Source of the DNA: an uncultured Clostridia bacterium | Lineage (GTDB): Bacteria > Bacillota > Clostridia > Christensenellales > CAG-138 | DNA length: 64,000 nucleotides | Assembly (NCBI GenBank): GCA_944336625.1 | Contig: CALVLF010000101.1 | Location: 1,029-65,028, forward strand | Direction of reading: 5' to 3' | Shown here: one piece after another, positions 6,617 through 61,265 of the stretch | How the letters are laid out: every line of letters begins with the position of its first letter | How positions within the stretch are numbered: position 1 is the stretch's first letter | Program-made: the position numbers and the translations under genes | The notes under the pieces: model-generated | Told to the model about the DNA's origin: nothing | The model's input: only the letters and a program-made list of their open reading frames with translations | The model's database searches: none

Positions 6617-7392
6617 CTACGCGGACGGCGGCGCTAAGCGCGCGGCTATAGCGCGCGCAGACGTTAGCGGGTAGTCTTCCGCAGTGCCCGCGCCCTTCCT
6701 TAAAAGCCGCCGGGGGCCGTAGATTATGGCCCCCGGCTTTTTCCAGCCGCGCGCAAGCGGGGCCTTATCCATACCGCAAAAGGCCCAAAGTAAGGCGGAG
6801 CGTCGCAAAGGCGCTTGCAACTGAGCAGCGGAGCCGTAGCGACGGCCTTTTGCGGAGAGGAAGAGCAAGGGAGCGACGCGACGGCGGCTTTTTCGCCTAC
6901 AGCTAAAAAGCCGCCGGAGTAAAGCGGACTTTGCGATGACGAGCCGCCGGGCGAAATCCGGTTCGCCCGGCTTTGGCGGGGCGGCTGAAAGGAACGTTCG
7001 TGGAAATACGCAAACGAGGCGGCGGGCGCGCACAGCGCGCACAAAGCAAGGGCAGGGGCTTTGCCCCTGCCCTTGCTTTGGTTTGGCGGCCCTTCGGCCC
7101 GCCAAACGCCGCCGCCCCCTCCTTACCCCCGCCTGCGCAAAGCACCCCCATCCCAAAGGATGGGGGTGCTTTGGTTGCCGCAAAAGGGCTGCTTAGCCCC
7201 TTTTCCACAGGCTGACGCCGGCGGAGCGGATTCTTCCGCCCTGCCTTGTTCGCTTTGCTCATGGCAAGGCTGCTATATAAGGAATGCCCGGCTTAGGCCG
7301 GGCCCTGCCCTTCTGCCGCACCTGCCGCCAGAAGGGGTTGCGCCTCGGGGCTGCGCCCCGAGGCATGAAAACGATTCTTCGGCAGGCTGCCC
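6617..7392. repeat. Modular GC-rich multi-hairpin repeat locus R1
   Basis: Lies between convergent gene ends. Contains block T (6617-6705), terminator-like hairpin H (6706-6742), blocks X and G (6771-6981), three-hairpin cassette type A (7016-7119), and further perfect hairpins (for example 7138-7173, 16 bp). The blocks recur at six other loci. Confidence 0.9.
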
Positions 7393-9621
7393 TTAAGCGC
7401 TGGCGCTATGGCTGCGCTGCCGCACCCGCCTAAGCTGCAGGGCAATGACGCCGATGAGAATAACCAGGCCGATGCTGTCCGTCACAATGCCGGGGATGAT
7501 CATGGCCAGGCCGCCGCCTACGAGAAGGATGCGCTCATACCAGGTGCAACGGTCCTGCACAAAGCCCGTCAAGCCCCCGGACAGGGCATACATGCCCACC
7601 AGGGCCGTACAGGTGCTCAGGATGATATCCCCTACGGAAGAATCGATCATCAGCATCACCGGGTTGAGCACGAAGATGTAGGGCACGATAAAGGCCCCTA
7701 TGGCGATTCGTGTGGCCGTAACCCCCGTTTTAAAGGGGTCGCCCTTGGCGATAGCAGCCCCTGCCATGGCAGCCAGGGCCACCGGCGGCGTAATATCCGC
7801 GATGATGCCAAAGTAGAACACGAACAGGTGGGCGCTCATGATGATGGCCATGGTGGGCTCTGCCAGGCCGTTCATGGATACCAGCACGTTGATCAGCGCC
7901 GAGGCGCAGATGGTAGAGGTGATGAGGTAATTAGCCGTGGTGGGCACGCCCATGCCCAGGACAATGGAGGACAGCATGGTGAAGAACATCAGCAGGAAGA
8001 TATTGTTCCCAGCGATGCTAGCTAGGCCTGTGGCGAATTTCAGGCCGATGCCCGTCAGAGTAACGGTGCCCACGATCATGCCTGCCATGGCGCAGGCAAC
8101 GGCCACGGAAAGGACGCTGCGGGCGCCGCTCTTAAGGGCGTCCATAATGTCCATGGGGTCAAAGCCCAGCTTATCCGCCAGCTTGGGCCCCCGCTTCCAG
8201 TTGATGATAGGCGCCAGGATGAGCCAGAGCACCAGAGACCATACGGCATACTGGGTAAAGCGGATCTCCCCGATGCCAAACTGGGCCAGGAGCCCCGGGA
8301 ACCAGTTGTGGGCCTGCATGCAGGTGAGCATAAGGCCGATGGGGATGAGAGAATACCAACGGATGCTGTGGGCCATGTGGGAAGTAAGGATGGCCCCCAG
8401 GGCGGCATAAGTGGGGGTAGTTTTGCTGGAAAGCATATAGATCATGAAAATCAGGGGCAGAAGCAGGTGGCCCCCCTCGGCCATGACCTTGCCCAGCTTG
8501 GGGATTTCATCCGCAGACATGCCCCTTAGGCCGATCTTGCGGGCCTCATGATGGACGCTAATGAGGATGCCGGAAAAATAGAGGATGGCGGGGATGATGG
8601 CGGATTTAACCACCTCCGCATAGGGGAAGCCCGTAGCGTCCGCCATGAGGAAAGCCGCCGCCCCCATGATGGGGGGCATGAGCTGGCCGCCGGTGGAAGC
8701 CGCCGCCTCCACCGCCCCGGCGAATTCCGGGCTATAGCCCAGCTTTTTCATGGTAGGGATGGTAAAGGAGCCGGAGCCCACCGTATTGGCCACGGAGGAG
8801 CCGGATACGGTCCCTTCCAGGGCGGAGGCGATAACGGCCACCTTGGCCGGGCCGCCCACCCGCTTGCCCGCCAGGGCATTGGCCAGGTCGATGAATAGCT
8901 TGCCCACCCCCGTCTTTTCCAGGAAGGCGCCAAAGAGGATGAACAGGAAGATATAGGTGGAGGATACCCCCAGGGGCGTGCCGAATACGCCGTTGAGGGT
9001 GAAATACATATGGGTGACCACCTGTTTTACGCTGTAGCCCCGGTGCCCAAAGGAGCCGGGGATATATTTGCCGAATACGGCATAGGCCAGGAACAGCAGC
9101 ACGATGATGAGGATGGGCAGACCTACTACCCGGCGGCAGGCTTCCATCAGCAATACCATGCCTACCAGGCCGGCGATGATCTCCACCGTGCCAAAGTTGC
9201 CTACGTTCCGGACGATATATTCATAGTTGAAGGGAATATACAATACGGCGGCCAGCGCCAGCAGGCCCAGGACGATATCATACCAGGCGATCTTATCCTT
9301 TCTAAGATCCCGCCTGGCCGGATAGAGCATATAGACCAGGAAAAGCACAAAGGCCAGGTGTACGGCCCGGAGGACCTGGGGCGGGATGGTCCAGATGCTG
9401 GTGTAGATCTGGAAAAGGGAAAAGGCGATGAGCGTGATGGAGATGATCAGGGCAGGCGGGCCTTTGAGCCGGTTGCGGTAGGCGGCCTCCTTATCGTATT
9501 TCTCCAGAACGGCCTCCGCCTCCAGCCGGGCCCGCTCATCTTCGCTCAGGCCCTCCAGGTTCAGCTCGGGGCTGGGCGGGGGCTGGGGGGCATTTTCTTT
9601 TTTCTTTTTACGTCGTTCCAT
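7393..9621 (-). CDS. TRAP transporter fused permease (TAXI-type, DctQ-DctM fusion)
   Basis: About 742 aa, highly hydrophobic with many TM segments. The N-terminal cytoplasmic K/E-rich tail followed by LKGPPALIISITLIAFSLFQIY is typical of TAXI-associated fused permeases. I prefer the start MERRKKKK (GGGAGG RBS). Confidence 0.9.
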   Translation of the reverse strand: MERRKKKKENAPQPPPSPELNLEGLSEDERARLEAEAVLEKYDKEAAYRNRLKGPPALIISITLIAFSLFQIYTSIWTIPPQVLRAVHLAFVLFLVYMLYPARRDLRKDKIAWYDIVLGLLALAAVLYIPFNYEYIVRNVGNFGTVEIIAGLVGMVLLMEACRRVVGLPILIIVLLFLAYAVFGKYIPGSFGHRGYSVKQVVTHMYFTLNGVFGTPLGVSSTYIFLFILFGAFLEKTGVGKLFIDLANALAGKRVGGPAKVAVIASALEGTVSGSSVANTVGSGSFTIPTMKKLGYSPEFAGAVEAAASTGGQLMPPIMGAAAFLMADATGFPYAEVVKSAIIPAILYFSGILISVHHEARKIGLRGMSADEIPKLGKVMAEGGHLLLPLIFMIYMLSSKTTPTYAALGAILTSHMAHSIRWYSLIPIGLMLTCMQAHNWFPGLLAQFGIGEIRFTQYAVWSLVLWLILAPIINWKRGPKLADKLGFDPMDIMDALKSGARSVLSVAVACAMAGMIVGTVTLTGIGLKFATGLASIAGNNIFLLMFFTMLSSIVLGMGVPTTANYLITSTICASALINVLVSMNGLAEPTMAIIMSAHLFVFYFGIIADITPPVALAAMAGAAIAKGDPFKTGVTATRIAIGAFIVPYIFVLNPVMLMIDSSVGDIILSTCTALVGMYALSGGLTGFVQDRCTWYERILLVGGGLAMIIPGIVTDSIGLVILIGVIALQLRRVRQRSHSASA

Positions 9622-9798
9622 GTGGTTTCCTCCCAATGCGATGTTGCTGGGCCGCCAGGAACCGGCCCATAGGCTGGGGAAAAAGGGAGATTCTATCCCT
9701 TCCCCGGGTTTGGGCGGCCCAAAGCGGCCGCAGCCGGAAGCAATCTCCTTTGGCGGCCCCGCCCAGGGGCTTGCGCCCCTCCTGAAAAGGGGCGGCCC

Positions 9799-10326
9799 CT
9801 AGCCGGCCCCCAGGAGGCAATCGAGCAGGCTGGCCCTCTCCACGCCCAGGCGGACAAAGGTCCCCGCAGGCGCCAGCTCCAGAAGCCGCCTTTCCCCGCC
9901 CCGGTACAGGAGCCGCTGGTCCGGCACCTCCTGCAAAAGGATGGGAATGCTATCCTGCTTTTTGTCAATATCCGAAAGAAGAAATCCCTCCGGCGTATTT
10001 TCGAAGCTGCCCCCAATTCCATCTGCCAGCACCGGCATCCCCCAGCCATAGGCGGAAAACAGGGTGCTTTCCAATACCAGGCTCCCGCCGGATACCCGCA
10101 GGGTATCGGTGACGGGGGTCAGGTTGACGGAATGGGTATAGCAGAGGGCAATGGTCTCCCCTTCCCGAAGGGGAAGCAGAAGGAGCCGTTCCCCCGTCCG
10201 CCCGTTCCGCAGAACAAGGGCCGGAAACAATGGCAGGCAAAGGGCCAGGGCAAGGGCCAGAATGAGGGCCGGGAGCAGGAGACGGCGCCCCCTGCTTCCC
10301 AGTAAGTTTTTGCGCAATGGCTTCAT
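9799..10326 (-). CDS. DUF1850 domain protein (TAXI-TRAP accessory)
   Basis: 175 aa with an N-terminal TM or signal segment. It sits between the TAXI binding protein and the fused permease, which is the conserved position of DUF1850. Motif YTHSVNLTPV. Confidence 0.75.
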   Translation of the reverse strand: MKPLRKNLLGSRGRRLLLPALILALALALCLPLFPALVLRNGRTGERLLLLPLREGETIALCYTHSVNLTPVTDTLRVSGGSLVLESTLFSAYGWGMPVLADGIGGSFENTPEGFLLSDIDKKQDSIPILLQEVPDQRLLYRGGERRLLELAPAGTFVRLGVERASLLDCLLGAG

Positions 10327-10338
10327 CCGAAGGATGGC

Positions 10339-11385: not shown

Positions 11386-11680
11386 GTGTTTCTCCTCCAC
11401 GTTTATTTTTATTTTATCCGGCATCCGCCCCAAGGATAAGATAATCCCGGGAGCAGATGATCCTTTTATAGAAAAGCAGGTTTTCTTTAAGAATTGGTTG
11501 GATACGCGTATACAGTAAAAAATATGATTATAGCATACCCGTTTTCCGCTTAACTTTCAAGTAGTTTTGCAATATATCCCTTCCATGGGCTATAATGGGG
11601 GCAGCGGTGTCCCTTCCGGCCCGCCACAAAAGGGCCGAAGGCCCCCTTTTTCATCTTGCATCCAGGGAAGAGAGGCTACC

Positions 11681-15304: not shown

Positions 15305-16489
15305 GTGAACAGAAAACTTTACAGGGCATTGGCTCTGGCCCTGGCCCTGGCCTTCGTGCTGAGCATGGCAGGGGTAGCCCTGGCTGACGCTACCTTCAGC
15401 GCCTCTTCCGGCACGGCTTACGCCACCGAGGCCGTCAACGTCCGCTCCGGCCCCGGCACCAGCTACAGCGTGCTGGGTTACCTGAGCCGCGGCGAAAAGG
15501 TCACCATTACCGGTACCGTCAGCAACGGCTGGACCCAGATCCGGCTGCCCGGCGGCTATTATGGTTATGTGAGCAGCGCCTATCTGAGCCGCTCTTACCC
15601 CACCGGCGGCAGCACCATCATCACCCCCTCGGGGGATCGCTATAAGGTTACCGCCGGCGCCCTGAACGTACGCCGAGGCCCTGGTACCAACTATAGCGTC
15701 GTTGCCGTGCTGGATAAAGGGGATATCGTTACCCGCATCGGCCAGAGCGGCAAATGGTTTAAAGTAGCCACCTCTGACGGTTCCGATGCCTGGGTATCCT
15801 CCAAGTATCTGGCCAGCGTCAGCGATACCGTGGTCGTTCCTGGGGGTACCACTACCATGTATGCCACCACCGGCGTCAACGTCCGCTCCGGCCCCAGCAC
15901 CAACTACAGCATCGTAGGCGGTCTGGAGCGGGGGGATAAAGTGACCCGTACCGGCACCAGCGGCAACTGGACCCGTATTTCCTGGGGCAATGGCAGCGCC
16001 TATGTATTCAGCAAATACCTCCAGACCAGCCCTATCAGCGGCGGAAATAACTGGACCTCCGGCAGCACCTATACCCGCTATACCACCACCCTGCTCAACA
16101 TCCGCTCCGGCCCCAGCACCAGTTATTCCATTGTAGGCACCGTGAGCAAGGGCCAGCCCCTTTCCTGCGTAGGTACCAGCGGCAACTGGACCAAGATCGT
16201 CTGGGGCAGCGGCTATGCCTATGCTTACACCAGCTACCTCACCAGCAGCCCTTACTATGGCAATATCTGGGGCAGCAGCCAGGATGTAATCTTTGGCAGC
16301 AACCGGGTCATGATGCAGACCTCGGCCCCCATCTATACCATTGCTAATTCCAGCTCCATGTACTATGTGCAAACCCTGCCTGCGGGAACCCGGGCCACCC
16401 TGCTGGCCATGAACGATGGCTGGGCCAAGATCCTCTACAATAACCAGGTCTATTATACCTGGGGCAGCAACCTGGCTTACGCAGATTAA
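15305..16489 (+). CDS. Secreted protein with five SH3b (bacterial SH3) repeats
   Basis: GTG start with AAGGAGGGA RBS. Signal peptide MNRKLYRALALALALAFVLSMAGVALA. Five repeats of the type (V/L)N(V/I)R(S/R)GPxTxYSxxGxxxxGxxV...W. No catalytic domain is recognisable. Confidence 0.85.
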   Translation: MNRKLYRALALALALAFVLSMAGVALADATFSASSGTAYATEAVNVRSGPGTSYSVLGYLSRGEKVTITGTVSNGWTQIRLPGGYYGYVSSAYLSRSYPTGGSTIITPSGDRYKVTAGALNVRRGPGTNYSVVAVLDKGDIVTRIGQSGKWFKVATSDGSDAWVSSKYLASVSDTVVVPGGTTTMYATTGVNVRSGPSTNYSIVGGLERGDKVTRTGTSGNWTRISWGNGSAYVFSKYLQTSPISGGNNWTSGSTYTRYTTTLLNIRSGPSTSYSIVGTVSKGQPLSCVGTSGNWTKIVWGSGYAYAYTSYLTSSPYYGNIWGSSQDVIFGSNRVMMQTSAPIYTIANSSSMYYVQTLPAGTRATLLAMNDGWAKILYNNQVYYTWGSNLAYAD

Positions 16490-16541: not shown

Positions 16542-16562
16542 GCCCCCTTCCTTCCTCCCTTA

Positions 16563-16830
16563 GCCTGGCCCCCGGGTCCTGCGCGGACGGCGATAGCGCG
16601 CGCGAACGTTGGCGGAAAACGATGGTTAGAGCCCGCGTCTTTTCTTAAGCGCCGCCCGGCCCCGTAGATTATGGGGCCGGGCTTTCGCCGGAGGCTGAAA
16701 GAAGCCTTCGTGGAAATAGGCAAGGTGGGGCGGCGGGTGCGCGGAGCGCACACAAAGGAAGGGCCGGGGCTTTGCCCCGGCCCTTCCTTTGGTTTGGCGG
16801 CCCTTCGGGCCGCCAAACGCCGCCGCCCTC
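16563..16830. repeat. Modular multi-hairpin repeat locus R2 (T-H-cassette A, forward orientation)
   Basis: T about 16563-16650, H 16651-16685, cassette A 16727-16828. A GC-rich tail with weaker similarity continues to about 16960. Confidence 0.9.
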
Positions 16831-17151
16831 CCCGCCGGGAGCCGAAGGCAAAAGTCCTCTTGCAAAGGGTTGCCATTAGGCCGAAGCGCCGCGGGAGCGC
16901 TCCCCCCGCTTCCACCCATAAAAGCCATTCGGGCGTCAGAAGCGCAAGAGCCCGGCACAGCCGTGCTTTGCCTGTATAGCCCTGGCCATTTTTGCGAAAG
17001 GGCGAAGCCCTGCCGGAGGCATATCGGGGTAGCGCCCCCGCCAGGGGTATGCTATAATGATTTTAGCAATTCCTTTTTCTGCCCTTCGTGTACAAGGGTA
17101 TCTTCTTATCCAGAACATTTCCAAAACATTCTGAAAGAAAGGACCTTTCTT

Positions 17152-33196: not shown

Positions 33197-33696
33197 GCCA
33201 GCCTCCCCCGGGTCCTGCGCGCACGGCGGCGCTAAGCGCGCGGCTATAGTCGCGCGCGGAAGTTGGCGGGAAGCAGTGGTTTGAGCCCGCGTCTTTCGTT
33301 GTAAGCCGCCCGGCCCCGCAAATCATGGGGCCGGGCTTTTCCCTTCCTCGCGCAGACGGAAGGGCATCCCTTTCTAGCTGCCTTTCCTGCCGCCGGGGCC
33401 CTGGATTATGGGCCCCGGCTTTTTCCGCAGGTGAAGCGGGGCGTTGGTGGAAATACGCGGGGGGCGGCGGGTGCGCAGAGCGCACACAAATGCAGGGCCG
33501 GGGCGCAGCCCCGGCCCTGCATTTGGTTTGGCGGCCCTTGGGGCCGCCAAACGCCGCCGCCCCCTCGCCGGAGTTTTTGCTGACCTTCCTTCCCGGCGGC
33601 AAGGAGCGGAAAAAGCGAGAAGTCAGCCCAGTTGCAAAGGAGCGCAAGGAAGGGCTCTTGCGCCCCCAAGGGCTTTTTGCTTTCCGGTTGGCCCGG
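33197..33696. repeat. Modular multi-hairpin repeat locus R3 (T-H-H-cassette A, forward orientation)
   Basis: T about 33197-33304, H 33305-33340 and 33389-33424, cassette A 33459-33564. A GC-rich tail runs to the putP stop. Confidence 0.9.
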
Positions 33697-38600: not shown

Positions 38601-38877
38601 TACCCTTAACGAACAAGGGTATACACGCCTGAGCAGGCCTTCTTTGGCCCATTTCTTTGTTGCAGTCGCTCGAATTAGCGCTGCTAGTCCATCGCTCCTG
38701 CGCCGCGAACTGGGCGCAAAGCAGGCCTGCTAAGGTCGAAGAGTTTTGGTGGGCTGGGCCGCTAGAGAGCAAGGCGTGGCCCCGCAGCCATAGTGGACCC
38801 TATTGCAAGGGGCCACAACGATGCTATCTGGCGGCCCAGCCCGCCAAAACCGTGTATCCCCTTGTCCGTTAAGGGTA
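38601..38877 (+). ncRNA. Unclassified structured element, copy B; homologous to 1979-2170 and carrying a ~100-nt nested-hairpin insertion
   Basis: The 27-nt ends are complementary (TACCCTTAACGAACAAGGGTATACACG / CGTGTATCCCCTTGTCCGTTAAGGGTA). An inner helix forms between CCTGAGCAGGCCTTCTTTG and CAAAGCAGGCCTGCTAAGG. The conserved core AGCGCTGCTAGTCCATCGCT is at 38677-38696. The extra hairpin GGTGGGCTGGGCCGC...GCGGCCCAGCCCGCC spans 38748-38845. The element ends 28 nt before the glgB RBS. Confidence 0.35.
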
Positions 38878-43437: not shown

Positions 43438-45135
43438 ATGGATTCTTTGGATATAAAAGCCCCCCGCCCGGTGCAGTCCACTGCCCCGGCCGTAATCGTG
43501 GGGCGGGAAGCCTCCCCCCAGGGGGCGCAAAATAAATCCCCTTCCCCTAACCCTTCTGACCGGAAGAAACGGGGAAGCGCCAAGGCCGCCTCCAGCAAAA
43601 AGGCAGCCCTGCCTGATGCGCCGGCCTCCAGCCCGGAGGAAGCAGAGAAGATAGAAAGCCAGCCTACCAAAGAGGAGGGAATACCCGTGGAAACTACGCC
43701 GCCCTTACGCGTTCTGATCGCTGCCAGCGAGTGCGTTCCCTTTGTAAAGACCGGAGGATTGGCCGATGTGATCGGCGCCCTGCCCCAGGCCCTGAAGAAG
43801 CTGGGGGCGGACGTGCGGGTCATCCTGCCCAAGTACGGTTCCATCCCGGAGGAATACAAGAGGCGCATGACCCATGTTTGCGACTTTCCCGTTCCCCTGG
43901 GCTGGCGGAGCCAGTATTGCGGCATCGAAGCCCTGGAGGAAGGGGGCCTGACCTACTATTTTGTGGATAATGAATATTACTTTGCCCGGGGATATATTTA
44001 TGGCCACTTCTGCAACGACGAGGCGGAGCGCTTCGCCTATTTTTCCAAGGCCGTGCTGGACTGCATGCCCCATATCGGCTTTTTCCCCCAGGTGCTCCAC
44101 TGTCATGACTGGCAGACGGCCATGTCCATCGCCCTTTTGAAGCTGCAATACAGCTGCCTGCCGGATTATTCCCCCATCCGCACCCTGTTTACCATTCATA
44201 ACCTGCGGTACCAGGGGGTATTCGACTGGCCCTTCGTATCGGAGCTGCTTAGCCTGGGAGGCGGCTGCTTCCGCCAGGACTGCCTAGAATATTACGGCAA
44301 GGCCAATTTCATGAAGGCAGCCCTGGTGCTGGCGGATGCGGTGACTACCGTAAGCCCTTCCTATGCCTCGGAGATTCAATCCAGCACCTATGGGGAAACC
44401 CTGGATGGGGTGCTGCGGGCCCGAGGCAGGGTCAGCGGCATCCTCAACGGCCTGGATGAGCACCTGTATGACCCGTCTACAGACCCCCATATTGCCGCCC
44501 ATTACAGCCCGGATGACTGCAGCGGCAAGGCCGCCTGCAAGCGGGAGCTTCAGGGCTATTTTCACCTGGATCCGGATCCGGAGGTGGCCATCGTGGGCAT
44601 GGTAACCCGGCTGACGGACCAGAAGGGCCTGGATCTGATTGAGCAGGCCATGGAGGAATTCATGCTCCGGCGCATGCAGTTCGTCATATTGGGCACGGGA
44701 GACAGGCGGTATGAGCAGCTCTTTTCCTGGGCCTGCTGGCGCTGGCCCGGCCGGGTGGGCTGCTGGATGGAGCATAACCCCCCTATGGCCAACCGGGTTT
44801 ACGCGGGCAGCGATATGTTCCTCATGCCCTCCCAGTTTGAGCCCTGCGGACTGGCCCAGCTCATTGCCCTGCGGTATGGCTCCGTGCCCATCGTTCGGGA
44901 AACCGGCGGTCTGAAGGACAGCATCACCCCCTACAATAAGTTTACCGACGAGGGCCTGGGCTTTACCTTTGCCCGGTATGATGTATGGGATATGCTGGGC
45001 GCCCTGAACCGGGCCCTGGAAAGCTTTTACGATTACCCCGCCTCCTGGCACAGCCTCATGACCCGGGGTATGCGAGCCCACTTCACCTGGGATAAGAGCG
45101 CCCGCCAGTATATGGATCTTTACCGGAGCTTATAA
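43438..45135 (+). CDS. glgA: Glycogen synthase (ADP-glucose type)
   Basis: The conserved core begins at RVLIAASECVPFVKTGGLADV (about 43702), with C-terminal PSQFEPCGLAQL and GGLKDSI. The ATG at 43438 gives an 83-aa K/S/P/A-rich extension. An alternative GTG at 43687 with a strong RBS (AGAGGAGGGA, 6 nt) gives a canonical 482-aa protein. Confidence 0.9.
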   Translation: MDSLDIKAPRPVQSTAPAVIVGREASPQGAQNKSPSPNPSDRKKRGSAKAASSKKAALPDAPASSPEEAEKIESQPTKEEGIPVETTPPLRVLIAASECVPFVKTGGLADVIGALPQALKKLGADVRVILPKYGSIPEEYKRRMTHVCDFPVPLGWRSQYCGIEALEEGGLTYYFVDNEYYFARGYIYGHFCNDEAERFAYFSKAVLDCMPHIGFFPQVLHCHDWQTAMSIALLKLQYSCLPDYSPIRTLFTIHNLRYQGVFDWPFVSELLSLGGGCFRQDCLEYYGKANFMKAALVLADAVTTVSPSYASEIQSSTYGETLDGVLRARGRVSGILNGLDEHLYDPSTDPHIAAHYSPDDCSGKAACKRELQGYFHLDPDPEVAIVGMVTRLTDQKGLDLIEQAMEEFMLRRMQFVILGTGDRRYEQLFSWACWRWPGRVGCWMEHNPPMANRVYAGSDMFLMPSQFEPCGLAQLIALRYGSVPIVRETGGLKDSITPYNKFTDEGLGFTFARYDVWDMLGALNRALESFYDYPASWHSLMTRGMRAHFTWDKSARQYMDLYRSL

Positions 45136-45140
45136 AAGCT

Positions 45141-45710
45141 GTGCTGCGCGCAGGTTGATATTCGCGCGCAGACGCCTGCGGGAAACCTGCCGCAGTGCCC
45201 GCGTCCTTCCTTAAGAGCCGCCGGGGCCCTGGATTATGGGCCCCGGCTTTATCTTTCCTTGCGCAGGCGGAAGGGCTCCCTTTCCGACTGACTTTTCTTC
45301 CGCCGGGGGCCAGGATTATAGCCCCCGGCTTTCCCGGCGGCTGGAAGGGAAGTTGGCGAAGATACGGGAGGGGCGGCGGCGGGAGCGCGAAGCGCTCCTG
45401 GAGGGGCCCTTTGGGCCCCTCCCCTTCGCAAGGGGCCGGGATGCCAGCATCCCGGCCCCTTGCGAAGCGCCGCCGCCCCCCTGCGAGGCTTCTTCAAGGC
45501 CCCTTTTCAGCCCCGCCAAAGCCGGGCAAGCCGAACCTTGCCCGGCGGCATATACGGCCCCTTCCATCGGGATAAGGCCCCGCTTCCGCGAGGATGGAAA
45601 AAGCCGGGGGCCATGGCCAACGGCCCCCGGCGATTCTTAAGAAAGGGCGCGGGCACAAGCCACCGCTTCCCGCAAACGCTTGCGCGCGAATATCGCCGTG
45701 TGCGTAGCAC
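45141..45710. repeat. Modular multi-hairpin repeat locus R4 (inverted-arm composite around a type B cassette)
   Basis: The left arm (T+H, 45141-45250) and right arm (45598-45710) are about 75% identical inverted copies. Internal H at 45301-45332, cassette B at 45370-45481, and an inverted G hairpin near 45498-45530. Confidence 0.9.
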
Positions 45711-45804
45711 CCCTTTCTCCGCTAAAAGTCACCATCCGTGGGCTGAATTGTGACAATGTTGAAAAAGCGCTTGTTGGCACCTCTTTTTATGTTAAAATAA
45801 ACCC

Positions 45805-47718
45805 ATGAGTTTGCACGATATTTATCATGATTCCAGGCGGCTCCGGTATAGAACGCCCTTCGGTGCAGCCAAGCAGGGGGAGCCGGTGCGGCTGATGGCG
45901 GAATATCAGGGGCCGAACCGGCTTCTGTTGCGGCTCTGGGTGGAAGGCCGGGAAGCGCTTATGGAGGGCCGCAGGGAAGGCGGCTGCGTAGAATACACCT
46001 TCTCGCCGGAGAATACGGGGCTGATCTGGTATTATTTCATCGAGGAAGGACCGGGGGGCCAGCGGCGGTATTATGGGGCCGAGGGCAACCGGGGCGCCGG
46101 GCGGATCTACGATCAGCCGCCCCCCTCCTGGCAGCTGACGGTTTATGACCCGGCCTTTGAAACCCCTGCCTGGTTTCGGGAAGGGATCGCCTATCAGATT
46201 TTTCCGGACCGCTTTTACCGCAGCGGGCCCGTGGAAGGGGTACAGGCCCATGAAGCCCTGGGGCACCGGGTGGTGCTGCATACGGCTTGGGAAGAGCAGC
46301 CCGCCTATCTGCCCCAGCCGGGGGAAGCTTATTACGACCCCTGTGATTTTTACGGGGGAAACCTGCGGGGCATACAGGAAAAGCTCCCTTATTTGGCTTC
46401 CCTGGGGGTGCGTTGCCTCTACCTGAACCCCATCTTCCTCTCCCCCTCCAACCACCGGTATAATACGGCGGATTACCGCCGTATCGACCCCATGCTGGGT
46501 ACGGAGGAGGATCTTATAGCCCTGGTGCGGGAAGGGGAACGCTATGGCATCCGCATCATGCTGGATGGCGTCTTTTCCCATACGGGGGCGGACAGCGTCT
46601 ATTTCGACCAAAATGGCGTTTATGGCAACGGTGCATGCAGCAATCCCGCCTCCCCTTACCGGGCCTGGTATGAATTCAGCCACTATCCCGGGGAATATAA
46701 AAGCTGGTGGGGCTTCCGCTCCCTGCCGGAGGTAAAGGAGATGGAGCCCAGCTATATGGATTTCATCGCAGGCACCCTGGCCCGGTATCACAGCCTGGGG
46801 GTCAGCAGCTGGCGGCTGGATGTGGCAGATGAGCTGCCGGATGCTTTCATCGCCTTTCTTAGGGAAAAGCTAAAGGCCCTGGATAGCCAGGGGGTGCTCC
46901 TGGGGGAGGTATGGGACGATGCCTCCAATAAAGAGGGCTTTGGCGCCCGGCGCAAATATGTGGATGGGGCCGAGCTGGACAGCGCCATGGGCTATCCCTT
47001 CAAGGATGCGGTTCTGGCTTTCCTTCTGGGGCAAATCCCGGCGGAAGAGCTGCAGAGGCGGCTCATGACCCTTTGGGAAAACTATCCCCAGCCCTTTTAT
47101 GCTGCCCAGCTCAACATCCTAGGCAGCCATGATACCATCCGGGCCCAGACGGTGCTCTCCGGCGCCCCGGGCCGGGATGCCCTGCCCCGGGAGGAGCAGG
47201 CCAAATGGCAGCCCAGCCCGGAGAACAGGGCTCTGGGCCTGGCCCGGCTCCGCCTGGGCGCCCTGCTGCAATTCGGCCTGCCGGGGGTGCCCTGCATCTA
47301 TTATGGGGATGAGGCCGGGCTTACGGGTATGGCAGACCCCTTCTGCCGGGGGACCTACCCCTGGGGCAGGGAGGATGGGACGCTGCTGGCCTTTTATCGG
47401 GCCATCGCCGCCGCCCGGAAAGGCTGCGCTGCCCTGTATAGGGGGGGCTGCGCCATGGCGGCCCTTTCCCCGGATGTATTCGCCGCCCTGCGCTGCGAAT
47501 GGGAAAGCGGGGCCATCCTGCTGGTAAATCGGGGTAACCAGGCCTATCATGCTGTTCTGGGGCTGGATCGGTTCCAGGAAGGGCCGGATGTGGGCCGGAT
47601 GTGGATTTCCGGCCGGTACCGGGATGCGGCTACCGGGGCGGAGTATCAGGCGGAAAAAGGGACGCTTTCCTTGCGCCTTGGCCCCCTGCAGGGGCTGTTA
47701 CTGATCAGAATCGACTGA
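45805..47718 (+). CDS. GH13 alpha-glucosidase/neopullulanase-type glycoside hydrolase
   Basis: 637 aa. GH13 conserved regions YQIFPDRF, GGNLRGIQEKLPYLASLGVRCLYLNPIF, GIRIMLDGVFSH, SWRLDVADEL, GEVWDD and LGSHDT. Confidence 0.9.
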   Translation: MSLHDIYHDSRRLRYRTPFGAAKQGEPVRLMAEYQGPNRLLLRLWVEGREALMEGRREGGCVEYTFSPENTGLIWYYFIEEGPGGQRRYYGAEGNRGAGRIYDQPPPSWQLTVYDPAFETPAWFREGIAYQIFPDRFYRSGPVEGVQAHEALGHRVVLHTAWEEQPAYLPQPGEAYYDPCDFYGGNLRGIQEKLPYLASLGVRCLYLNPIFLSPSNHRYNTADYRRIDPMLGTEEDLIALVREGERYGIRIMLDGVFSHTGADSVYFDQNGVYGNGACSNPASPYRAWYEFSHYPGEYKSWWGFRSLPEVKEMEPSYMDFIAGTLARYHSLGVSSWRLDVADELPDAFIAFLREKLKALDSQGVLLGEVWDDASNKEGFGARRKYVDGAELDSAMGYPFKDAVLAFLLGQIPAEELQRRLMTLWENYPQPFYAAQLNILGSHDTIRAQTVLSGAPGRDALPREEQAKWQPSPENRALGLARLRLGALLQFGLPGVPCIYYGDEAGLTGMADPFCRGTYPWGREDGTLLAFYRAIAAARKGCAALYRGGCAMAALSPDVFAALRCEWESGAILLVNRGNQAYHAVLGLDRFQEGPDVGRMWISGRYRDAATGAEYQAEKGTLSLRLGPLQGLLLIRID

Positions 47719-47731
47719 AGTTGAGGTATCC

Positions 47732-48160
47732 ATGGGATTTTTCAATCGTTTATTCCAGGGCCGGTATGGCCCGGATAAATTCAGTCTGGCCCTGCTCTGG
47801 GCCGGCGTTATCCTGAGCCTGGTCAATGGCTTTTTCATGGGCATCCCGGTGGTTTATAGGATCCTCCGGGTGCTAGTACTGGCCCTGTATATCTTTGGCA
47901 TATTCCGGATGTTTTCCCGGAATTTTGCTGCCCGTCACCGGGAGCTGGCCTGGTATAACGGCCTGGTCGGCCAGATAAAGGGCCTGTGGCGTCGGGTTCG
48001 CTATGGCAGCCGGAATGTGGTAAACCTGAATGCGGAACGGAAAAAATACAAATACCTCATCTGCCCCCAGTGCCGGCAAAAGCTCCGGGTGCCCAAGGGC
48101 AAAGGCAACCTCAGGGTAACTTGCTCCAAATGCGGTTGCAAATTCAACGCGAAAAGTTAA
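47732..48160 (+). CDS. Membrane-anchored zinc-ribbon protein
   Basis: 142 aa with two N-terminal TM segments. C-terminal CPQC...CSKCGC zinc ribbon. RBS GAGG. Confidence 0.7.
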   Translation: MGFFNRLFQGRYGPDKFSLALLWAGVILSLVNGFFMGIPVVYRILRVLVLALYIFGIFRMFSRNFAARHRELAWYNGLVGQIKGLWRRVRYGSRNVVNLNAERKKYKYLICPQCRQKLRVPKGKGNLRVTCSKCGCKFNAKS

Positions 48161-48296
48161 GCGCCCCTTTCAGAGGCCGGCGCCAAAAAGAGAAAATACC
48201 GCCCCTTTTTCTCCAGCCTGTGTTATAATACTGTAGAGATTCGCATAAGCTAACTTTTGCGGACAGGATAAATCAACAAAAGGAGAGACTTTTTAC

Positions 48297-48500
48297 ATGA
48301 CCATCGATAAAACCATGAACATCGTAGAGCTCCTGGGCGTCAACGAAGGGATCGCGGACATCCTCATGGAGAGCGGCATGCATTGCCTGGGCTGCATCAT
48401 GGCCCACGGGGAAACTTTAGAGCAGGCCTGCGCCGTCCACGGCATCGATGCGGATGCCCTGGAAGCCAAGATCAACGATTACCTGGCTGCTCAGGCTTAA
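48297..48500 (+). CDS. DUF1858 domain protein (hybrid-cluster-protein-associated redox disulfide family)
   Basis: 67 aa. The MHCLGCxMAxxETLEQAC motif is typical of the family. RBS AAAGGAGAG. Confidence 0.8.
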   Translation: MTIDKTMNIVELLGVNEGIADILMESGMHCLGCIMAHGETLEQACAVHGIDADALEAKINDYLAAQA

Positions 48501-48545
48501 GCATGGCCCTAACACACCCAAAGCGGGCGCTCCCTGCCACCTTGT

Positions 48546-49255
48546 AGGTGCTAAGTGCAGGGCTGCTATAGCCGCGCACAAACATTTTTTAAACGATTGT
48601 TTGTGCCCGCGTCTTTTTCTTACCGCCGCCGGGGCCTAGGCCATGGCCCCCCGGGTGCTACGCGCACGGCAATATTCGCGCACGAACGTTGGCGGGAAGT
48701 GGCGGTTTGCGCCCGCATCCCTCAGTTACCGCCGCCCGGCCCCGTAGATTATGGGGCCGGGCTTTTTTCTGCCGAAAAAACCATCTGGGGTTTAGGAGCC
48801 GCAGCCCCATACCGCAAAAGGCCCAAAGCAAGGCGGAGCGTTGCGAAGGCGCCTGCAACTGAGCAGCGACGGCCTTTTACGGAGAGGAGGGCAGAGCCGA
48901 GCGCTGCCTGTGGCAGATGAAGCGAGGCGGAAGCCCAGTGAGCAAGGGAGTGCTAGGAAGGGCCCCCTGGCCCGACGCAGCACGACCATTGCGAACTGAG
49001 AGGTTACGCCGGATACTATGCACCGCCCCCAAACCTCACCGCAGCTAAGCGGACTTTGCGACGACGAGCCGCCGGGCAAGGTTCGGCTTGCCCGGCTTTG
49101 GCGGGGCTGAAAAGGGGCCTTGAAGAAGCCTCGCAGGGGGGCGGCGGGTGCGCACAGCGCACACAAAGGCAGGGCCGGGGCAGAGCCCGGCCCTGCCTTT
49201 GGTTTGGCGGCCCCAAGGGCCGCCAAACGCCGCCGCCCCCCTTCCGCCGCCCCCT
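48546..49255. repeat. Modular multi-hairpin repeat locus R5 (T-H-T-H-X-G-cassette A, forward orientation)
   Basis: H at 48625-48657 and 48731-48768. Blocks X and G at 48809-49105 (homologous to 6771-6981). Cassette A at 49136-49240. It lies between convergent gene ends. Confidence 0.9.
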
Positions 49256-52993: not shown

Positions 52994-53024
52994 CCTGCCC
53001 CTCCCTGAAGCATAAGGAGTTGCT

Positions 53025-53765: not shown

Positions 53766-53787
53766 AAAGGGCTAGCTCTATGTAACC

Positions 53788-54760: not shown

Positions 54761-55040
54761 ATTTCCCCCCCTGCCTTCTGTATAGGCCGAGGAATTATGC
54801 AGCCCCCAAAAAGGGACATATCCACATTTCCAACATAGTTATCAACATGTGGAAAGGGCTAAATCCAGCCCTTATGCCATCTTTATCCCTTTTATCAACA
54901 GGCCTATGGATAAGCGCCTGTGGAGAATATGTGGACAGGTTTATGCATTTTGCATAGGCCCCCGCAGGGACTTTGCGCCCGGCCCGGAATATGATATAAT
55001 CACCTAAATCCACCCCCAATTGAAAGGAGCTGCAGGAATC

Positions 55041-55616: not shown

Positions 55617-55682
55617 GTGGATTTTTCTCCCATGGGCCCTGCCGGCATGGACGGCGGGCCCGGGAAAGGATAGAATGAGAGT

Positions 55683-56898: not shown

Positions 56899-56928
56899 TC
56901 CCCGTATACAAACAAGGAGGAGAAGCAA

Positions 56929-57933: not shown

Positions 57934-58536
57934 ATGGATATTGCGGATGAAGCCCTGGTAAGGCAGGCCCAGGCCGGCGACGGAGAGGCAGCGGAGCGCC
58001 TGTGCGAACGGTATAAGGATTTGGTGCGGGGATTGGCCCGGCCTTATTTCCTCCTGGGCGGAGACCGGGATGACCTGCTCCAGGAGGGGATGATCGGCCT
58101 GTATAACGCCATCCTCGGCTATGCGCCGGAGCGGGGGGCCCCCTTCCGCTCCTTTGCAGAGCTGTGCATCACCCGGCGAATCCTCAGCGCCGTGAAGATG
58201 GCCGCCCGCAACAAGCACCTGCCCCTGAACAACTACGTTTCCCTCAGCGGCCGCCTTACGGCAGACCCGGAGGACCAGCGCCAGCTTATGGATGCCCTGC
58301 CCCTGGGCGCCCAGAATCCGGAGGATACCTTTTTGCAAAAGGAGGCGGATGCCTATATGCAGTCCCTTCTGCAGGAACGGCTTTCCCCCTTTGAAAAGCA
58401 GGTGGTGGAGCTCTTTCTTTCCGGCCTCCGGTACCAGCAGATTGCCGAGGCCCTTTCCTGCTCCCGCAAGAGCGTGGATAACGCTCTGCAGCGGGTCCGG
58501 CGGAAGATTGCAGAGGCGCCGGAGGAGGGGCGCTGA
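57934..58536 (+). CDS. sigH: RNA polymerase sporulation sigma factor SigH
   Basis: The region 2 sequence DLLQEGMIGLYNAILGY....FRSFAELCITRRILSAVKMAARNKH is SigH-typical. The mrnC-rlmB-sigH neighbourhood is conserved in Firmicutes. Confidence 0.9.
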   Translation: MDIADEALVRQAQAGDGEAAERLCERYKDLVRGLARPYFLLGGDRDDLLQEGMIGLYNAILGYAPERGAPFRSFAELCITRRILSAVKMAARNKHLPLNNYVSLSGRLTADPEDQRQLMDALPLGAQNPEDTFLQKEADAYMQSLLQERLSPFEKQVVELFLSGLRYQQIAEALSCSRKSVDNALQRVRRKIAEAPEEGR

Positions 58537-58544
58537 GGGCGCGG

Positions 58545-58815
58545 GCACTGGGGGGCGGCGGCGTTTGGCGGCCCAAAGGGCCGCCAAACCAAAGGCAAGG
58601 CCGGGGCGCAGCCCCGGCCCTGCCTTTGTGCGCGCTCTGCGCGCCCGCCGCCCCCTTTGCGTATCTCCACAAACGTTCCTTTCAGCCTCCGGCGAAAGCC
58701 TGGCCCCATAATCGACGGGGCCGGGCGGCACGCAAGGAAGGGCGCGGGAACTGGGGCGGGCTGCCCGCCAGCGTCCGTGCGCTGTAGCCGCGCGCTAGCG
58801 CCTTCCGACCCCCCA
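58545..58815. repeat. Modular multi-hairpin repeat locus R6 (cassette A-H-T, reverse orientation)
   Basis: Cassette A at 58551-58655, H at 58695-58729, T about 58730-58815. It starts 9 nt after the sigH stop. Confidence 0.9.
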
Positions 58816-58991
58816 GAGGGGCCTTTTCGGCAGCATCGAGCCATTTCCGCGAGGAAGTGGCCTTTGTATAAATTCGATTGGGCTTCCGGCCCTTGCATTT
58901 CCATCCGGCTTCCCGTATAGTATGGATAGATTATCACGTATTTCCTTCTCTCATCTTCTCTCTTTTCCGCTCACTTTTTAAGGAGGCCCCT

Positions 58992-60323
58992 ATGGAATCC
59001 AATACAAAATCTGCCCGGATCTTTTCCTGGAATGGCATGCCGCCTTTGGGCCAAGCCCTTCCCCTGGCCCTGCAGCATGTAGTCGCTATGATTGTGGGCT
59101 GCGTAACCCCCTCCCTGGTTATCGCCGGCAGCGGCGTGGCCAATCTTTCCCCGGCGGACACCACCCTGCTGGTCCAGTCCGCCCTGTTCATCGCGGGCAT
59201 TGCCACCCTGGTGCAGCTTTTCCCCATCGGCAAACGGATCGGCGCAGGCCTGCCGGTGATCATGGGGGCCAGCTTCGCTTACCTGCCTACCCTCCAGTCC
59301 ATCGGCATCGAGTTCGGCATCGCCGCCATCTTCGGCTCCCAGCTCATCGGCGGAGCGGTGAGCATACTGGTGGGCATCTTCATCAAAAAGCTGCGGCCCT
59401 TCTTCCCGCCCCTGGTGACGGGCACGGTGGTATTCACCATCGGCCTTTCCCTGTATCCTACGGCCATCCGCTATATGGCCGGGGGGGATGGGAACCCGGC
59501 CTTCGGCTCCGTCCTCAACTGGGGGGTGGCGGTGGCTACCCTGCTGGTGGTTCTGGCCCTGAACCATTATACAAAGGGCTTCGTCAAGCTGGCCAGCCTC
59601 CTCATCGGCATGGTTGTGGGGTATGTCCTTTCCCTGTGCCTGGGGATGGTGGATTTTTCCCCGGTGGAGGAGGCCGCCTGGGTAGCCACGCCGGAACTTC
59701 TGCCCTTTGGCATAGCCTTTTATCCCACGGCAGTCATATCCATGGTGATCATGTATGTGGTAAATTCCGTCCAGGCCATCGGCGACCTTTCCGCTACCAC
59801 CGGCGGCGCCATGGACCGGGAGCCTACGGACCGGGAGCTTTCCGGGGGCATCGTGGGCAATGGCGCCACCAGCATACTGGGCTCCCTTCTGGGGGGCCTG
59901 CCCACGGCCACCTATAGCCAGAACGTAGGCATCGTTACCATCACCCGGGTGATCAACCGCTGGGTGCTGGGCCTGGCGGGCACCCTTATCCTCCTGGCAG
60001 CCTTTCTGCCCAAGTTCGCCAGCCTTTTGACCACCATTCCCCAGTGCGTGCTGGGTGGCGCTACTATTACGGTTTTCGCCTCCATCACCATGACGGGCAT
60101 GCGGCTCATTACCAGCCGGAAAATGCCCTACCGCAGCATGTCCATCGTAGGCCTGTCTGTAGCCCTGGGCCAGGGGATCATCGCCGTGCCCGGGGCCCTG
60201 GCGGGCTTCCCCTCCTGGGTGGATTCGGTTTTCGGCAGCTCCTCCGTGGTAATCGCCACCTGTACCGCCGTCATCATGAACCTGATCCTGCCCAAGGATA
60301 AGCCGGAGGACAATCCCGCCTAA
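58992..60323 (+). CDS. NCS2-family nucleobase:cation symporter (uracil/xanthine permease-like)
   Basis: LALQHVVAMIVGCVTP, YSQNVGIVTITRV and about 13 TM segments identify the family. RBS AAGGAGG lies before ATG 58992. The track start at 58878 was rejected. Confidence 0.9.
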   Translation: MESNTKSARIFSWNGMPPLGQALPLALQHVVAMIVGCVTPSLVIAGSGVANLSPADTTLLVQSALFIAGIATLVQLFPIGKRIGAGLPVIMGASFAYLPTLQSIGIEFGIAAIFGSQLIGGAVSILVGIFIKKLRPFFPPLVTGTVVFTIGLSLYPTAIRYMAGGDGNPAFGSVLNWGVAVATLLVVLALNHYTKGFVKLASLLIGMVVGYVLSLCLGMVDFSPVEEAAWVATPELLPFGIAFYPTAVISMVIMYVVNSVQAIGDLSATTGGAMDREPTDRELSGGIVGNGATSILGSLLGGLPTATYSQNVGIVTITRVINRWVLGLAGTLILLAAFLPKFASLLTTIPQCVLGGATITVFASITMTGMRLITSRKMPYRSMSIVGLSVALGQGIIAVPGALAGFPSWVDSVFGSSSVVIATCTAVIMNLILPKDKPEDNPA

Positions 60324-60385
60324 ATGCAGTTTATGCAGCGCAGCGCCCCTGCCTTCGTTATGGGAAGCAGGGGCGTTGCATATCG

Positions 60386-60411
60386 AAAAAGTGGCCCATG
60401 GGCCACTTTTT
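60386..60411 (+). terminator. Rho-independent terminator
   Basis: AAAAAGTGGCC-catg-GGCCACTTTTT is a perfect palindrome, 60 nt after the permease stop. Confidence 0.7.
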
Positions 60412-60539
60412 CGAGCTTTTCAGCTTTGGCTTGTTCGTACCGCACGGCCAGCCAAAACTGCGAAGAACCCTTGCTGCGCAAGGCCCTTCCCTGGGGATCC
60501 CTTGCGCACTGGGCGGATTTCTCGTTTTTCCGTCGCTTA

Positions 60540-61265
60540 CGGCCAAAAGGTAGCTTTGCAGAATCTCCGCCGGAGGGGGCGGCGGTGCTTCGCAGCGGGC
60601 CGGGATGCTGGCATCCCGGCCCGCTGCGAAGGGGAGGGGCCGGTTTTACCGGCCCCTCCAGGAGCGCTCCGCGCTCCCGCCGCCGCCCCCGCGTATTCCC
60701 GCCAGCCTTCCTTTTTGCCTATGGAGAAAGCCGGGGGCCATGGCCTAGGCCCCCGGCGGCACATACGTCCCCGTCCAGCGGGATAAGGCTTCGCTACCGC
60801 AAGGAAAGAAAAAGCCCGGCCCCATAACCTAGGGGCCGGGCGGGGCTTAAGGAAAGTCGCGGGCAGGAACCAGCGATTCCCACAAACGTCTGTGCGCGAA
60901 TATGGCCGTGCGCGTAGGACCGGGGCGGCGGCGTTTGGCGGCCCCAAGGGCCGCCAAACCAAAGGCAGGGCCGGGCTGTGCCCCGGCCCTGCCTTTGTGT
61001 GCGCTCCGCGCACCTGCCGCCCCCCGCCGGGCTTTCGCCGGCCTTCCTTTTCCCCTCCGCCAAAGCCGGGCGAACCGGATTTCGCCCGGCGGCAGGAAAG
61101 GCAGCTAGAAAGGTGTGCCCTTCCGCTTGCGCGAGAAAAGATAAAGCCGGGGCCCATAATCCAGGGCCCCGGCGGCACTTAAGGAACGGCGCGGGCTCTG
61201 CGCGGCAGGCTGCCCGCTTAACGTTTATGCGCGAATATCGCTGTCCGCGTAGGACCGGCGCTATA
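60540..61265. repeat. Modular multi-hairpin repeat locus R7 (cassette B-H-H-T-cassette A-G-H-T, reverse orientation)
   Basis: Cassette B at 60575-60690. H at 60727-60760, 60810-60845 and 61143-61176. T about 60846-60921 and 61177-61262. Cassette A at 60922-61025, with a G hairpin near 61066-61093. Confidence 0.9.

Follow-up and report, generated by a model that had tools for sequence, protein, structure and literature searches.

A polar, hairpin-modular family of intergenic repeats with a four-way-junction cassette in an uncultured human-gut clostridial clade

The unit of repetitive extragenic palindromes (REPs) is a single imperfect hairpin of 20-40 nt with a conserved GTAG on its 5′ side, and bacterial interspersed mosaic elements (BIMEs) alternate the orientation of such units. 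BOX elements have set modules at their ends and differ in how many internal modules lie between these. Both REP and SPRITE repeats are biased to convergent genes, BIMEs have effects on mRNA stability and are associated with recombination, and REP/BIME sequences are considered to influence termination and the stability of mRNA, their spread being ascribed to a trans-acting enzyme and not to a transposase of their own (PMC3184786). BOX elements are strongly structured, intergenic, transcribed and non-autonomous (PMC3184786). Here we analysed a stretch of 64,000 nt (referred to as the window) from contig CALVLF010000101.1 of GenBank assembly GCA_944336625.1, an uncultured Clostridia bacterium, in which copies of one family of multi-hairpin modules occupy seven intergenic loci. 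On balance we consider it probable that these modules are a previously undescribed, lineage-specific family of non-coding, hairpin-modular repeats of the REP/BIME or BOX/SPRITE type, semi-selfish and retained at gene 3′ ends. What is new is that the composite is polar and that its distal module forms a strand-symmetric four-way junction whose stem is invariant.

The window is chromosomal DNA with a base composition of ~60% GC. When the seven loci were compared with the whole window by blastn, repeat-related sequence was found only at 6613-7173, 16562-16838, 33205-33655, 45141-45712, 48591-49251, 58550-58802 and 60476-61261. These loci total 3,821 nt (5.97% of the window) with a GC content of 0.65-0.73, and the same direct and inverted repeat families were recovered by a repeat finder. 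A first-pass annotation of this DNA had proposed the same seven loci and a share of ~6%, and the self-comparison returned them and nothing else. Its copy counts also agreed with our profile and pattern searches: 10 full units of a module designated T-H (nhmmer profile), 13 terminator-like hairpins H (the 10 within T-H and 3 extra), 4 copies of a hairpin G (at 6947, 61066, 45522 and 49072, two of each compensated version), 2 copies of a block X (direct-repeat families D14 and D15), and 8 cassettes, six of which belong to type C1 and two to a variant, C2. An 18-mer taken from the cassette occurs 6 times in the window, against 0.02 expected. The annotation had further stated that the loci hold no credible open reading frame (ORF) and that the window encodes no transposase or integrase. 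Accordingly, a crude codon-usage gene caller placed no gene inside any locus, and a Pfam scan of 50 window ORFs detected no transposase, integrase or recombinase domain, their functions being housekeeping only.

The cassette is 100-135 nt long. Its outer stem of 10-12 bp (GGGGCGGCGG...CCGCCGCCCC) encloses three inner hairpins, namely a short GCGC hairpin (a), an AAAG...CTTT hairpin (b) and a GTTTGGC...GCCAAAC hairpin (c), and the cassette is therefore a four-way junction. The three inner hairpins had been recognised in the first-pass annotation, which missed the invariant 10-12-bp stem that closes them. Cassettes fold alike on both strands, with z values from -10.5 to -12.9 under RNA parameters and from -11.6 to -12.8 under DNA parameters. 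C2 has the outer stem and first hairpin of C1, together with long arms that are unrelated. Of 137 cassette sites, 119 fold as the outer stem plus exactly three hairpins, and each long arm occurs in 88 distinct versions among the 108 unique cassettes. Cassettes were aligned with a covariance model (R1) built from nine of them; in this alignment, whose covariation numbers lean towards structure because it was fitted to the model and includes reverse-strand matches, 97.7% of cells are in standard pairs, 34 of 43 pairs are changed on both sides, and the covariation score is 0.476, compared with 0.097 after shuffling and no more than 0.092 in slid controls. Ten outer-stem pairs are essentially without variation. 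The alignment bias notwithstanding, the invariant stem contrasts robustly with the freely compensated arms.

G-U pairs account for only 1-2% of cassette pairs (91 on the a-to-c strand and 50 on its complement, of ~5,500), leaving ~99% Watson-Crick pairs on both strands. Such near-perfect pairing is consistent with selection for folding on both strands; it fits either a two-way RNA role or a role at the DNA level, and speaks against an RNA under selection on one strand only. Further compensated pairs lengthen the outer stem into the flanks in many relatives. Terminal inverted repeats are present and invariant for the cassette (GGGGCGGCGG/CCGCCGCCCC) and absent for the composite that runs from T to C. 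Around the 108 cassettes no consistent target-site duplication of at least 2 bp was found, the distribution being like that of shuffled flanks.

The other modules stand 5′ of the cassette. The composite is polar and consists of T-H, optional inserts (K-H2, G or X/Y), a linker (D9) and the cassette in the a-to-c direction, amounting to ~270-350 nt; the blocks had initially been described as occurring in different combinations, and their order is instead fixed. T-H, a GC-rich component of this larger composite, is ~120 nt long and comprises a 4-bp hairpin whose loop is conserved (GTCC-TACGC-GGAC, or compensated variants of it), further weak hairpins, a conserved CCCGCG, a linker and H between GCCGCC and GGCTTT. 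H hairpins are the strongest terminator-like sites of the window, solely in the T-to-H direction, with eight of them at the top of the ranking. By sequence they resemble an intrinsic (Rho-independent) terminator, with a GC-rich stem-loop, a T-run directly after it and, usually, the orientation of the upstream gene, and 5 of 10 pairs of the H stem are compensated across species. GTAG was found within the H loop in 10 of 18 copies, which is only a lead as a link to REPs. Hairpin G is a paralogue of H with identical flanks. Loci 2 and 6 have a gap of 37-38 nt between T-H and cassette (short form); the gap is 114-122 nt in both elements of locus 4 and at loci 3 and 7 (long form), and 271-368 nt where X is present. 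The long form, which was also seen in two other species (L199 and L211; loci and contigs from other assemblies are given as L numbers), equals the short form plus a K-H2 insert of ~84 nt.

The arms CCGCAAAAGGCC/GGCCTTTT(G/A)CGG had been taken to close the whole of X; they enclose only its first ~70-80 nt (6774-6855 and 48812-48882). X also contains module Y (~110 nt; window 48876-49003), whose sequence is far better conserved across species than those of the other modules. In relatives Y is often present as tandem pairs and often lies at contig ends (for example L104 698-928, L227 180-409 and L122 13135-13257). Its fold includes a symmetric tandem G-A internal loop (CAGT-GA-GCAA / TTGC-GA-ACTG). 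As for a coding function of Y, one frame is open across tandem copies, but neither a start codon nor a ribosome-binding site accompanies it, and compensation is seen in the variable hairpin. T was considered as a promoter or small-RNA gene as well, and this was rejected because the -10-like TATAGC/GATATT varies between species.

We looked up the distribution of the family beyond the window. The host is an uncultured human-gut clostridial clade, Christensenellales-like; the GH13 protein encoded between loci 4 and 5 is 99% identical to a protein of metagenome bin GCA_949284455.1 and 67% identical to one labelled Christensenellaceae, and exact-protein look-ups with the GH13 protein, glgA, permease and TrpR-like protein gave no matches. 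Scanning a genome collection with the cassette 18-mer was unspecific and returned mostly chance matches in unrelated phyla, and these chance loci were reused as negative controls; among the matches listed, only those in two further bins, UMGS474 (human gut) and Candidatus Pelethousia gallinarum, were real. A more specific pattern for the cassette was found in 95 metagenome contigs, all of those with a stated source being human-gut assemblies, and in none of the viral contigs. Over 833 kb of family loci R1 gave 129 matches, as opposed to 0 over 751 kb of GC-rich controls, each of which holds the cassette 18-mer by chance. Profiles of T-H, Y (29 matches) and a small separate element, F (46 sites), likewise had matches in family loci and 0 in controls. 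The blocks are present widely in related genomes and are thus not a purely local duplication. In comparison, a relative at 67% protein identity had no repeats over 22 kb of syntenic DNA, and one at 76% had only few.

Known families and mobilising enzymes were searched for with these sequences. Against Rfam there were 0 matches at the gathering threshold, and at E<=5 only generic hairpin matches far below threshold; Y had no Rfam match. Plasmids and phages gave no blastn match, and in the literature, which was searched also by the sequence itself, no description of the family was found. The repeats belong to none of the named families tested, and the first-pass annotation had likewise not assigned them to one. 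RAYT and IS608 TnpA queries gave only E>1 in tblastn against 0.98 Mb of family loci and the window. The best match lies in a lipoprotein gene, and the weak one between two cassettes in L195 was rejected for this reason. An autonomous element with a gene between T and C was likewise rejected, as the sole long interval of this kind (L177) holds genes for a sigma factor, SpoU methylase, ThyX and mini-RNase III. Neither the window nor the 0.98 Mb of family loci showed an autonomous insertion sequence (IS) with matching ends. With respect to IS200/IS605-type features, the composite ends are hairpin-rich, with neither inverted ends nor a duplication, and the ten T left flanks, as read from the sequence, lack a fixed target.

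Three loci of the window lie between convergent genes (RluD/DctM, DUF1858/SpoIID and permease/TrpR-like), four between tandem genes and none between divergent genes, in agreement with the first-pass annotation, in which every locus touched a gene 3′ end and three were convergent. In the de-duplicated family loci, intergenic regions bearing a cassette were 42 convergent, 16 tandem and 2 divergent, compared with 31 convergent, 223 tandem and 81 divergent regions without cassettes (chi-square 125.5, p 6e-28, a p-value that overstates independence because the loci were selected for a cassette and the regions are partly orthologous). Convergent gaps are strongly overrepresented, and the direction of this bias is not in doubt. 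Only 3 of 117 cassettes were inside predicted genes. Within tandem intergenic regions 12 cassettes were co-oriented and 5 anti-oriented with the genes. The orientation of elements had been described as independent of flanking transcription; however, in 14 of 20 T-H units the 5′ side abuts the 3′ end of a co-oriented gene, the stop codon often being 3-54 nt away. For Y, all 4 copies that could be scored had the orientation of the upstream gene. Because T starts 2-5 nt past the stop codon, H is the only terminator-like structure available to the RluD-like gene and to glgA.

Contigs from other samples with flanking genes 98-99% identical to those of the window differ inside the repeat loci. Locus 6 has three alleles, of which the short one lacks the C1-D9-H segment 58554-58738 (conspecific contigs L231 and L232), the medium one is the window version, and the long one carries an extra G-Y-X-K-H-T element of ~650 nt. 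A 17-nt direct repeat, GGGCGCGGG(C/A)ACTGGGG (58538-58554 and 58723-58739), brackets the C1-D9-H segment, indicating either a deletion between short repeats or an insertion that left an unusually long duplication. Loci 5 and 7 have a different module content in other strains, part of the locus 1 tail (7213-7300, 88 nt) corresponds to ~11 nt in a 99%-identical contig (L237 4917-4922), and either C1 or C2 is found between identical flanks, depending on the strain. A perfect inverted repeat of 80 nt, with arms at 45470-45549 and 49068-49147, encloses 45550-49067. This segment of 3.5 kb, which lies between loci 4 and 5 and encodes GH13, DUF1858 and a protein of 142 aa, has the opposite orientation to the window in the conspecific contig L126. 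The L126 junction falls within the 12-nt outer stem common to C1 and C2, and a third junction, in L121, falls within the 80-nt inverted repeat.

Differences were also seen between species. In a related species with ~80% nucleotide identity (L152 5901-9816, L148, L214 and L166), the 3′ end of DctM faces that of the SH3 gene across a cassette; since these two genes border different loci in the window (1 and 2), the repeat loci are points at which synteny is broken. In Candidatus Pelethousia and a relative (L104 5853-6213 and L177 4712-5060), two inverted cassettes with considerably longer arms, of 125-135 nt, occupy the gap behind the orthologous sigma-factor gene. As the orthologous gap holds cassettes in these relatives, its occupancy is older than the species split and its content has changed. 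A survey of orthologous sites comprised 10 pairs only and was too small for use. The strain-level events look like recombination among copies rather than transposition, given that the cassettes have no target duplication and that neither an autonomous element nor a RAYT/IS200-like gene was present in the sequence searched. Short-read assemblies were observed to break at the repeats: 16 of 21 contigs carrying the DUF1858 gene were shorter than 2 kb, and family loci often start or end inside a cassette or Y.

These properties can be set beside those of the described systems. Like the REP/BIME sequences of Enterobacteria, Pseudomonas and Stenotrophomonas, the repeats are GC-rich extragenic palindromes of high copy number that form mosaics with linkers in either orientation and act as recombination hot spots, and they have the REP/BIME positional pattern, being biased to gene 3′ ends and convergent pairs. 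Unlike them, the units are multi-hairpin sequences of 100-350 nt in a fixed polar order with a closed, invariant-stem four-way junction at the end. A unit consisting of a single 20-40-nt palindrome with 5′ GT[AG]G was not found, GTAG being present only inside the H loop. The likeness to pneumococcal BOX (boxA-boxB(n)-boxC) lies in the Firmicute host and in a structured, intergenic, non-autonomous modular composite. In contrast, the BOX host is AT-rich, BOX has no four-way-junction module, and the sequences are presumably unrelated. Mobilisation of BOX by a known IS, ISStso1, has been proposed, and we know of no such IS for the repeats described here. Classical miniature inverted-repeat transposable elements, or MITEs, such as Correia/NEMIS, RUP and ERIC, are also small, non-coding and strongly folding, with terminal inverted repeats, and element F fits this class fully. 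The cassette differs in the lack of target-site duplications, T-H in the lack of inverted ends, and the arms in being hypervariable yet compensated. Because the defining sequence and unit features of REP/BIME and of the pneumococcal BOX and SPRITE elements are missing, and the cassette fails as a MITE on the duplication, we regard the family as a variant of their kind and not as a member. The initial impression of an unnamed family of structured, modular intergenic repeats similar to BIME/REP mosaics or MITEs is supported.

Our favoured explanation starts from the anatomy of the modules, their structural conservation across species, their confinement to intergenic DNA with an excess between convergent genes, the position of T-H behind co-oriented stop codons, and the polymorphism between strains. 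The modules would be semi-selfish DNA that multiplies and reshuffles mainly through recombination between copies and through a putative trans-acting enzyme with the invariant sequences and hairpins as its recognition sites; a classical cut-and-paste transposase with target duplication is not indicated. At gene 3′ ends the modules would be tolerated or retained, with H probably supplying the terminator of the upstream gene. The strand-symmetric cassette could fold in transcripts arriving from either direction, or extrude as a DNA cruciform, and the folded form may act as a barrier to read-through or to exonucleases between converging genes. A further-reaching version, which we put forward only tentatively, would make the cassette a novel type of bacterial repeat, with the stem of the strand-symmetric junction bound by a junction-binding or HUH-type enzyme that copies or exchanges cassettes, and with the arms selected for perfect pairing on both strands as a two-way transcript-end barrier or insulator between converging genes; cassette and T-H together would be a portable 'gene-end module' that this gut lineage needs for terminating a large share of its operons.

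Several observations weigh against the favoured explanation. Termination and RNA protection by these modules are predicted from sequence alone, the cassette has no U-tract, and 6 of 20 T-H face a gene 5′ end, indicating that not all units would serve as terminators. The window and the family loci searched yielded no mobilising enzyme. Among contigs of at least 78% identity there were no clean empty sites for cassettes, only F insertions and unrelated indels, and for T-H a clean insertion with empty-site evidence was not obtained. Short direct repeats could have given rise to the alleles of locus 6 through deletion or unequal recombination, and perfect palindromes can be maintained by DNA-level processes without benefit to the host. 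Additionally, the positional statistics were derived with a crude gene caller from loci selected for having a cassette, and some of the regions are orthologous.

Other explanations account for part of the same evidence. The perfect, invariant terminal inverted repeats and the MITE-typical size of the cassette, the neighbouring element F, which is a true MITE with a 5-bp duplication, and the existence of nesting (F and Y lie inside a cassette in L061) could mean that the modules are ordinary MITEs, that is, deletion derivatives of an IS moved in cut-and-paste fashion by a DDE transposase encoded elsewhere, with the clusters representing nested insertions in safe intergenic DNA. We find this rather unlikely, as target-site duplication is missing at 108 cassettes, whose flanks often prolong the palindrome instead, and the composite from T to C has no terminal inverted repeats. 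Moreover, no autonomous copy was found in the 0.98 Mb of family loci, the sole long T-to-C interval consisting of housekeeping genes, and compensated hypervariable arms together with an invariant stem would be unexpected from neutral MITE decay. A structured-RNA explanation, in which T-H, Y and the cassette are cis-acting RNAs of 3′ untranslated regions or small RNA genes selected at the RNA level only and their multiplicity reflects a regulon, appears less probable still. The occurrence of both orientations relative to transcription (5 anti-oriented against 12 co-oriented cassettes; 6 of 20 T-H facing gene starts) does not favour it, and a G-U content of 1-2% with an equal fold on both strands is unusual for one-strand RNA selection, even though covariation is strong and the G-U pairs are in modest excess on the a-to-c strand (91 vs 50). 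It would fit the terminator-like hairpin at the end of T-H, usually behind a co-oriented stop codon, and the high conservation of Y across species, with its tandem G-A loop and its co-orientation with the upstream gene (4/4); it would not fit the ~6% density, the presence/absence differences between strains, the lack of an Rfam match, or T, where no promoter-like motif is conserved.

If the cassette were instead the target of a junction-binding site-specific recombinase, the loci would serve as programmed switches that invert or shuffle DNA, for instance the GH13/142-aa/DUF1858 segment. The L126 junction in the 12-nt outer stem, the L121 junction in the 80-nt inverted repeat, the alternation of C1 and C2 between identical flanks and the breaks of synteny at repeat loci in related species are what such an explanation would draw on. 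It nevertheless seems very improbable to us, considering that no recombinase is encoded in the window, that a perfect 80-nt inverted repeat is sufficient for ordinary homologous recombination, that cassettes mostly occur singly and between convergent genes, a setting in which an inversion has no evident output, and that the junctions come from short-read metagenome contigs and may in part be assembly paths. Finally, an assembly artefact or a purely local duplication, for which only the general tendency of repeats to mis-assemble would speak, is refuted by the same modules in independent assemblies from many samples, including the bins UMGS474 and Candidatus Pelethousia gallinarum.

The arrangement of the modules at each locus of the window was as follows. 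Locus 1, on the plus strand, opens with T-H (6614-6745; nhmmer 6626-6745, E 2e-31), which begins 2-5 nt past the stop codon of the RluD-like gene (stop at 6612), is the top-ranked terminator-like site, and consists of small hairpins followed by H (6709-6737) and TTTTT. Linker K (6746-6770) directly precedes block X (6771-6943), which shares families D14 and D15 with locus 5 and whose first sub-hairpin (6774-6855) is closed by CCGCAAAAGGCC/GGCCTTTTGCGG. Pattern search and alignment placed hairpin G, in its version CCGGGCGAA/TTCGCCCGG, at 6941-6979, with flanks equal to those of H (GCCGCC...GGCTTT). It is followed by D9 (GGCTGAAAG...GGAAATACGCAA; 6980-7013), assigned by alignment and as a repeat family of 4 copies that is always immediately 5′ of a cassette, and by the four-way junction of C1 (7014-7120; R1 115 bits, and alignment). 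The remaining tail (7121-7392) is composed mostly of single-copy hairpins up to the 3′ end of the TRAP DctM gene, with no repeat coverage past 7173.

Locus 2, also on the plus strand, is the short form of the composite, with T-H at 16563-16689 (nhmmer 16573-16689, E 8.5e-32), D9 at 16690-16724 (family D9, alignment) and C1 at 16725-16831 (R1 115.9 bits); the fold of the whole locus has a z of -7.6. Upstream of it, direct repeats D6 and D13 at 15419-16252 correspond to the four SH3_3 domains of a 394-aa protein and are unrelated to the intergenic family. Locus 3 is on the plus strand as well, and has T-H at 33205-33345 (nhmmer 33224-33345; terminator-like site at 33308), a K-H2 insert of linker and second H at 33346-33426 (alignment of long and short forms, partial nhmmer match 33350-33426, terminator-like site at 33392), D9 at 33427-33458 directly before the cassette, and C1 at 33459-33565 (R1 114.3 bits), with fold z values of -12.9 for RNA and -12.8 for DNA.

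Locus 4 is made of two inverted elements with one C2 cassette in common. Its left element (45138-45335, plus strand; nhmmer, terminator-like sites and alignment) comprises T-H (45138-45256) and then K-H2, and begins ~3 nt past the glgA stop at 45135. The C2 cassette (45371-45478, plus strand) was identified by alignment, fold and R1 (36.5 bits). On the minus strand, G and a D9 variant lie at 45470-45549, assigned by alignment and as one member of the 100% complementary inverted-repeat pair I8, and the T-H of the right element, which faces the start of the GH13 gene, lies at 45594-45714 (nhmmer E 2e-31; minus-strand terminator-like site at 45631). All modules of locus 5 are on the plus strand. 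Two tandem T-H occupy 48546-48770, the first being degenerate (48546-48650) and the second (48652-48770) having a terminator-like site at 48734. They are followed by block X with module Y (48805-49066; families D14 and D15, Y profile), then by G in its version CCGGGCAAG/CTTGCCCGG with a D9 variant (49068-49135), within the second arm of the 80-nt inverted repeat, and by C1 (49136-49241; R1 107.8 bits), which ends 20 nt from the stop of SpoIID on the minus strand.

Loci 6 and 7 are on the minus strand. At locus 6, C1 (58550-58656; R1 110.3 bits) is located 14 nt past the sigma-factor stop codon, and D9 and T-H (nhmmer) extend over 58657-58815. For locus 7 the repeats had been correctly located in the first-pass annotation, while the left edge lies further out, at ~60383, and holds a copy of the different small element F (60383-60484; blastn to the L191 insert; hairpin CGAAAAAGTGGC...GCCACTTTTTCG). 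Next are C2 at 60574-60688 (alignment, R1 39.9 bits), D9, H2, K and T-H (60805-60923) at 60689-60923, and C1 at 60920-61025 (R1 102.2 bits). D9, hairpin G (61066-61089), K and a second T-H (61137-61259) complete the locus at 61026-61265. Both sets of modules with T-H were assigned by nhmmer, terminator-like sites and alignment, with pattern search in addition for the latter. T sits 39 nt past the stop of the TrpR-like gene (61298, minus strand).

Element F is a separate small MITE with terminal repeats CAGCYTGTCGA and a 5-bp duplication (GGGAT). Filled and empty sites were found in relatives (L191 5838-6037 versus L222, and L217 versus L226), and one insertion is directly behind a terminator hairpin. 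Another insertion, of ~250 nt, was observed between the ThyX and SpoU methylase genes in the conspecific contig L232 (1657-1909), for which window 56895/56900 is the empty site. It is 66% similar to window 38624-38875, itself the inverted-repeat partner of 2057-2125, and looks like a further, unrelated repeat family.

If the ~6% density of the window held genome-wide, the structured-repeat load of this clade, which is known from metagenomes only, would rank among the densest described apart from proteobacterial REPs. The assemblies of the clade shatter because of these repeats, inside which contigs end. The repeats are also sites of structural variation at the strain level, as seen in the inversion of a starch-metabolism gene segment and in allelic module arrays. 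The covariance model and profiles can be used for annotating the elements and for avoiding their being miscalled as genes or small RNAs. We believe that the junction between convergent genes, with its invariant stem and compensated arms, is a candidate for a bidirectional transcript-end element and a pointer to a new repeat-mobilising enzyme.

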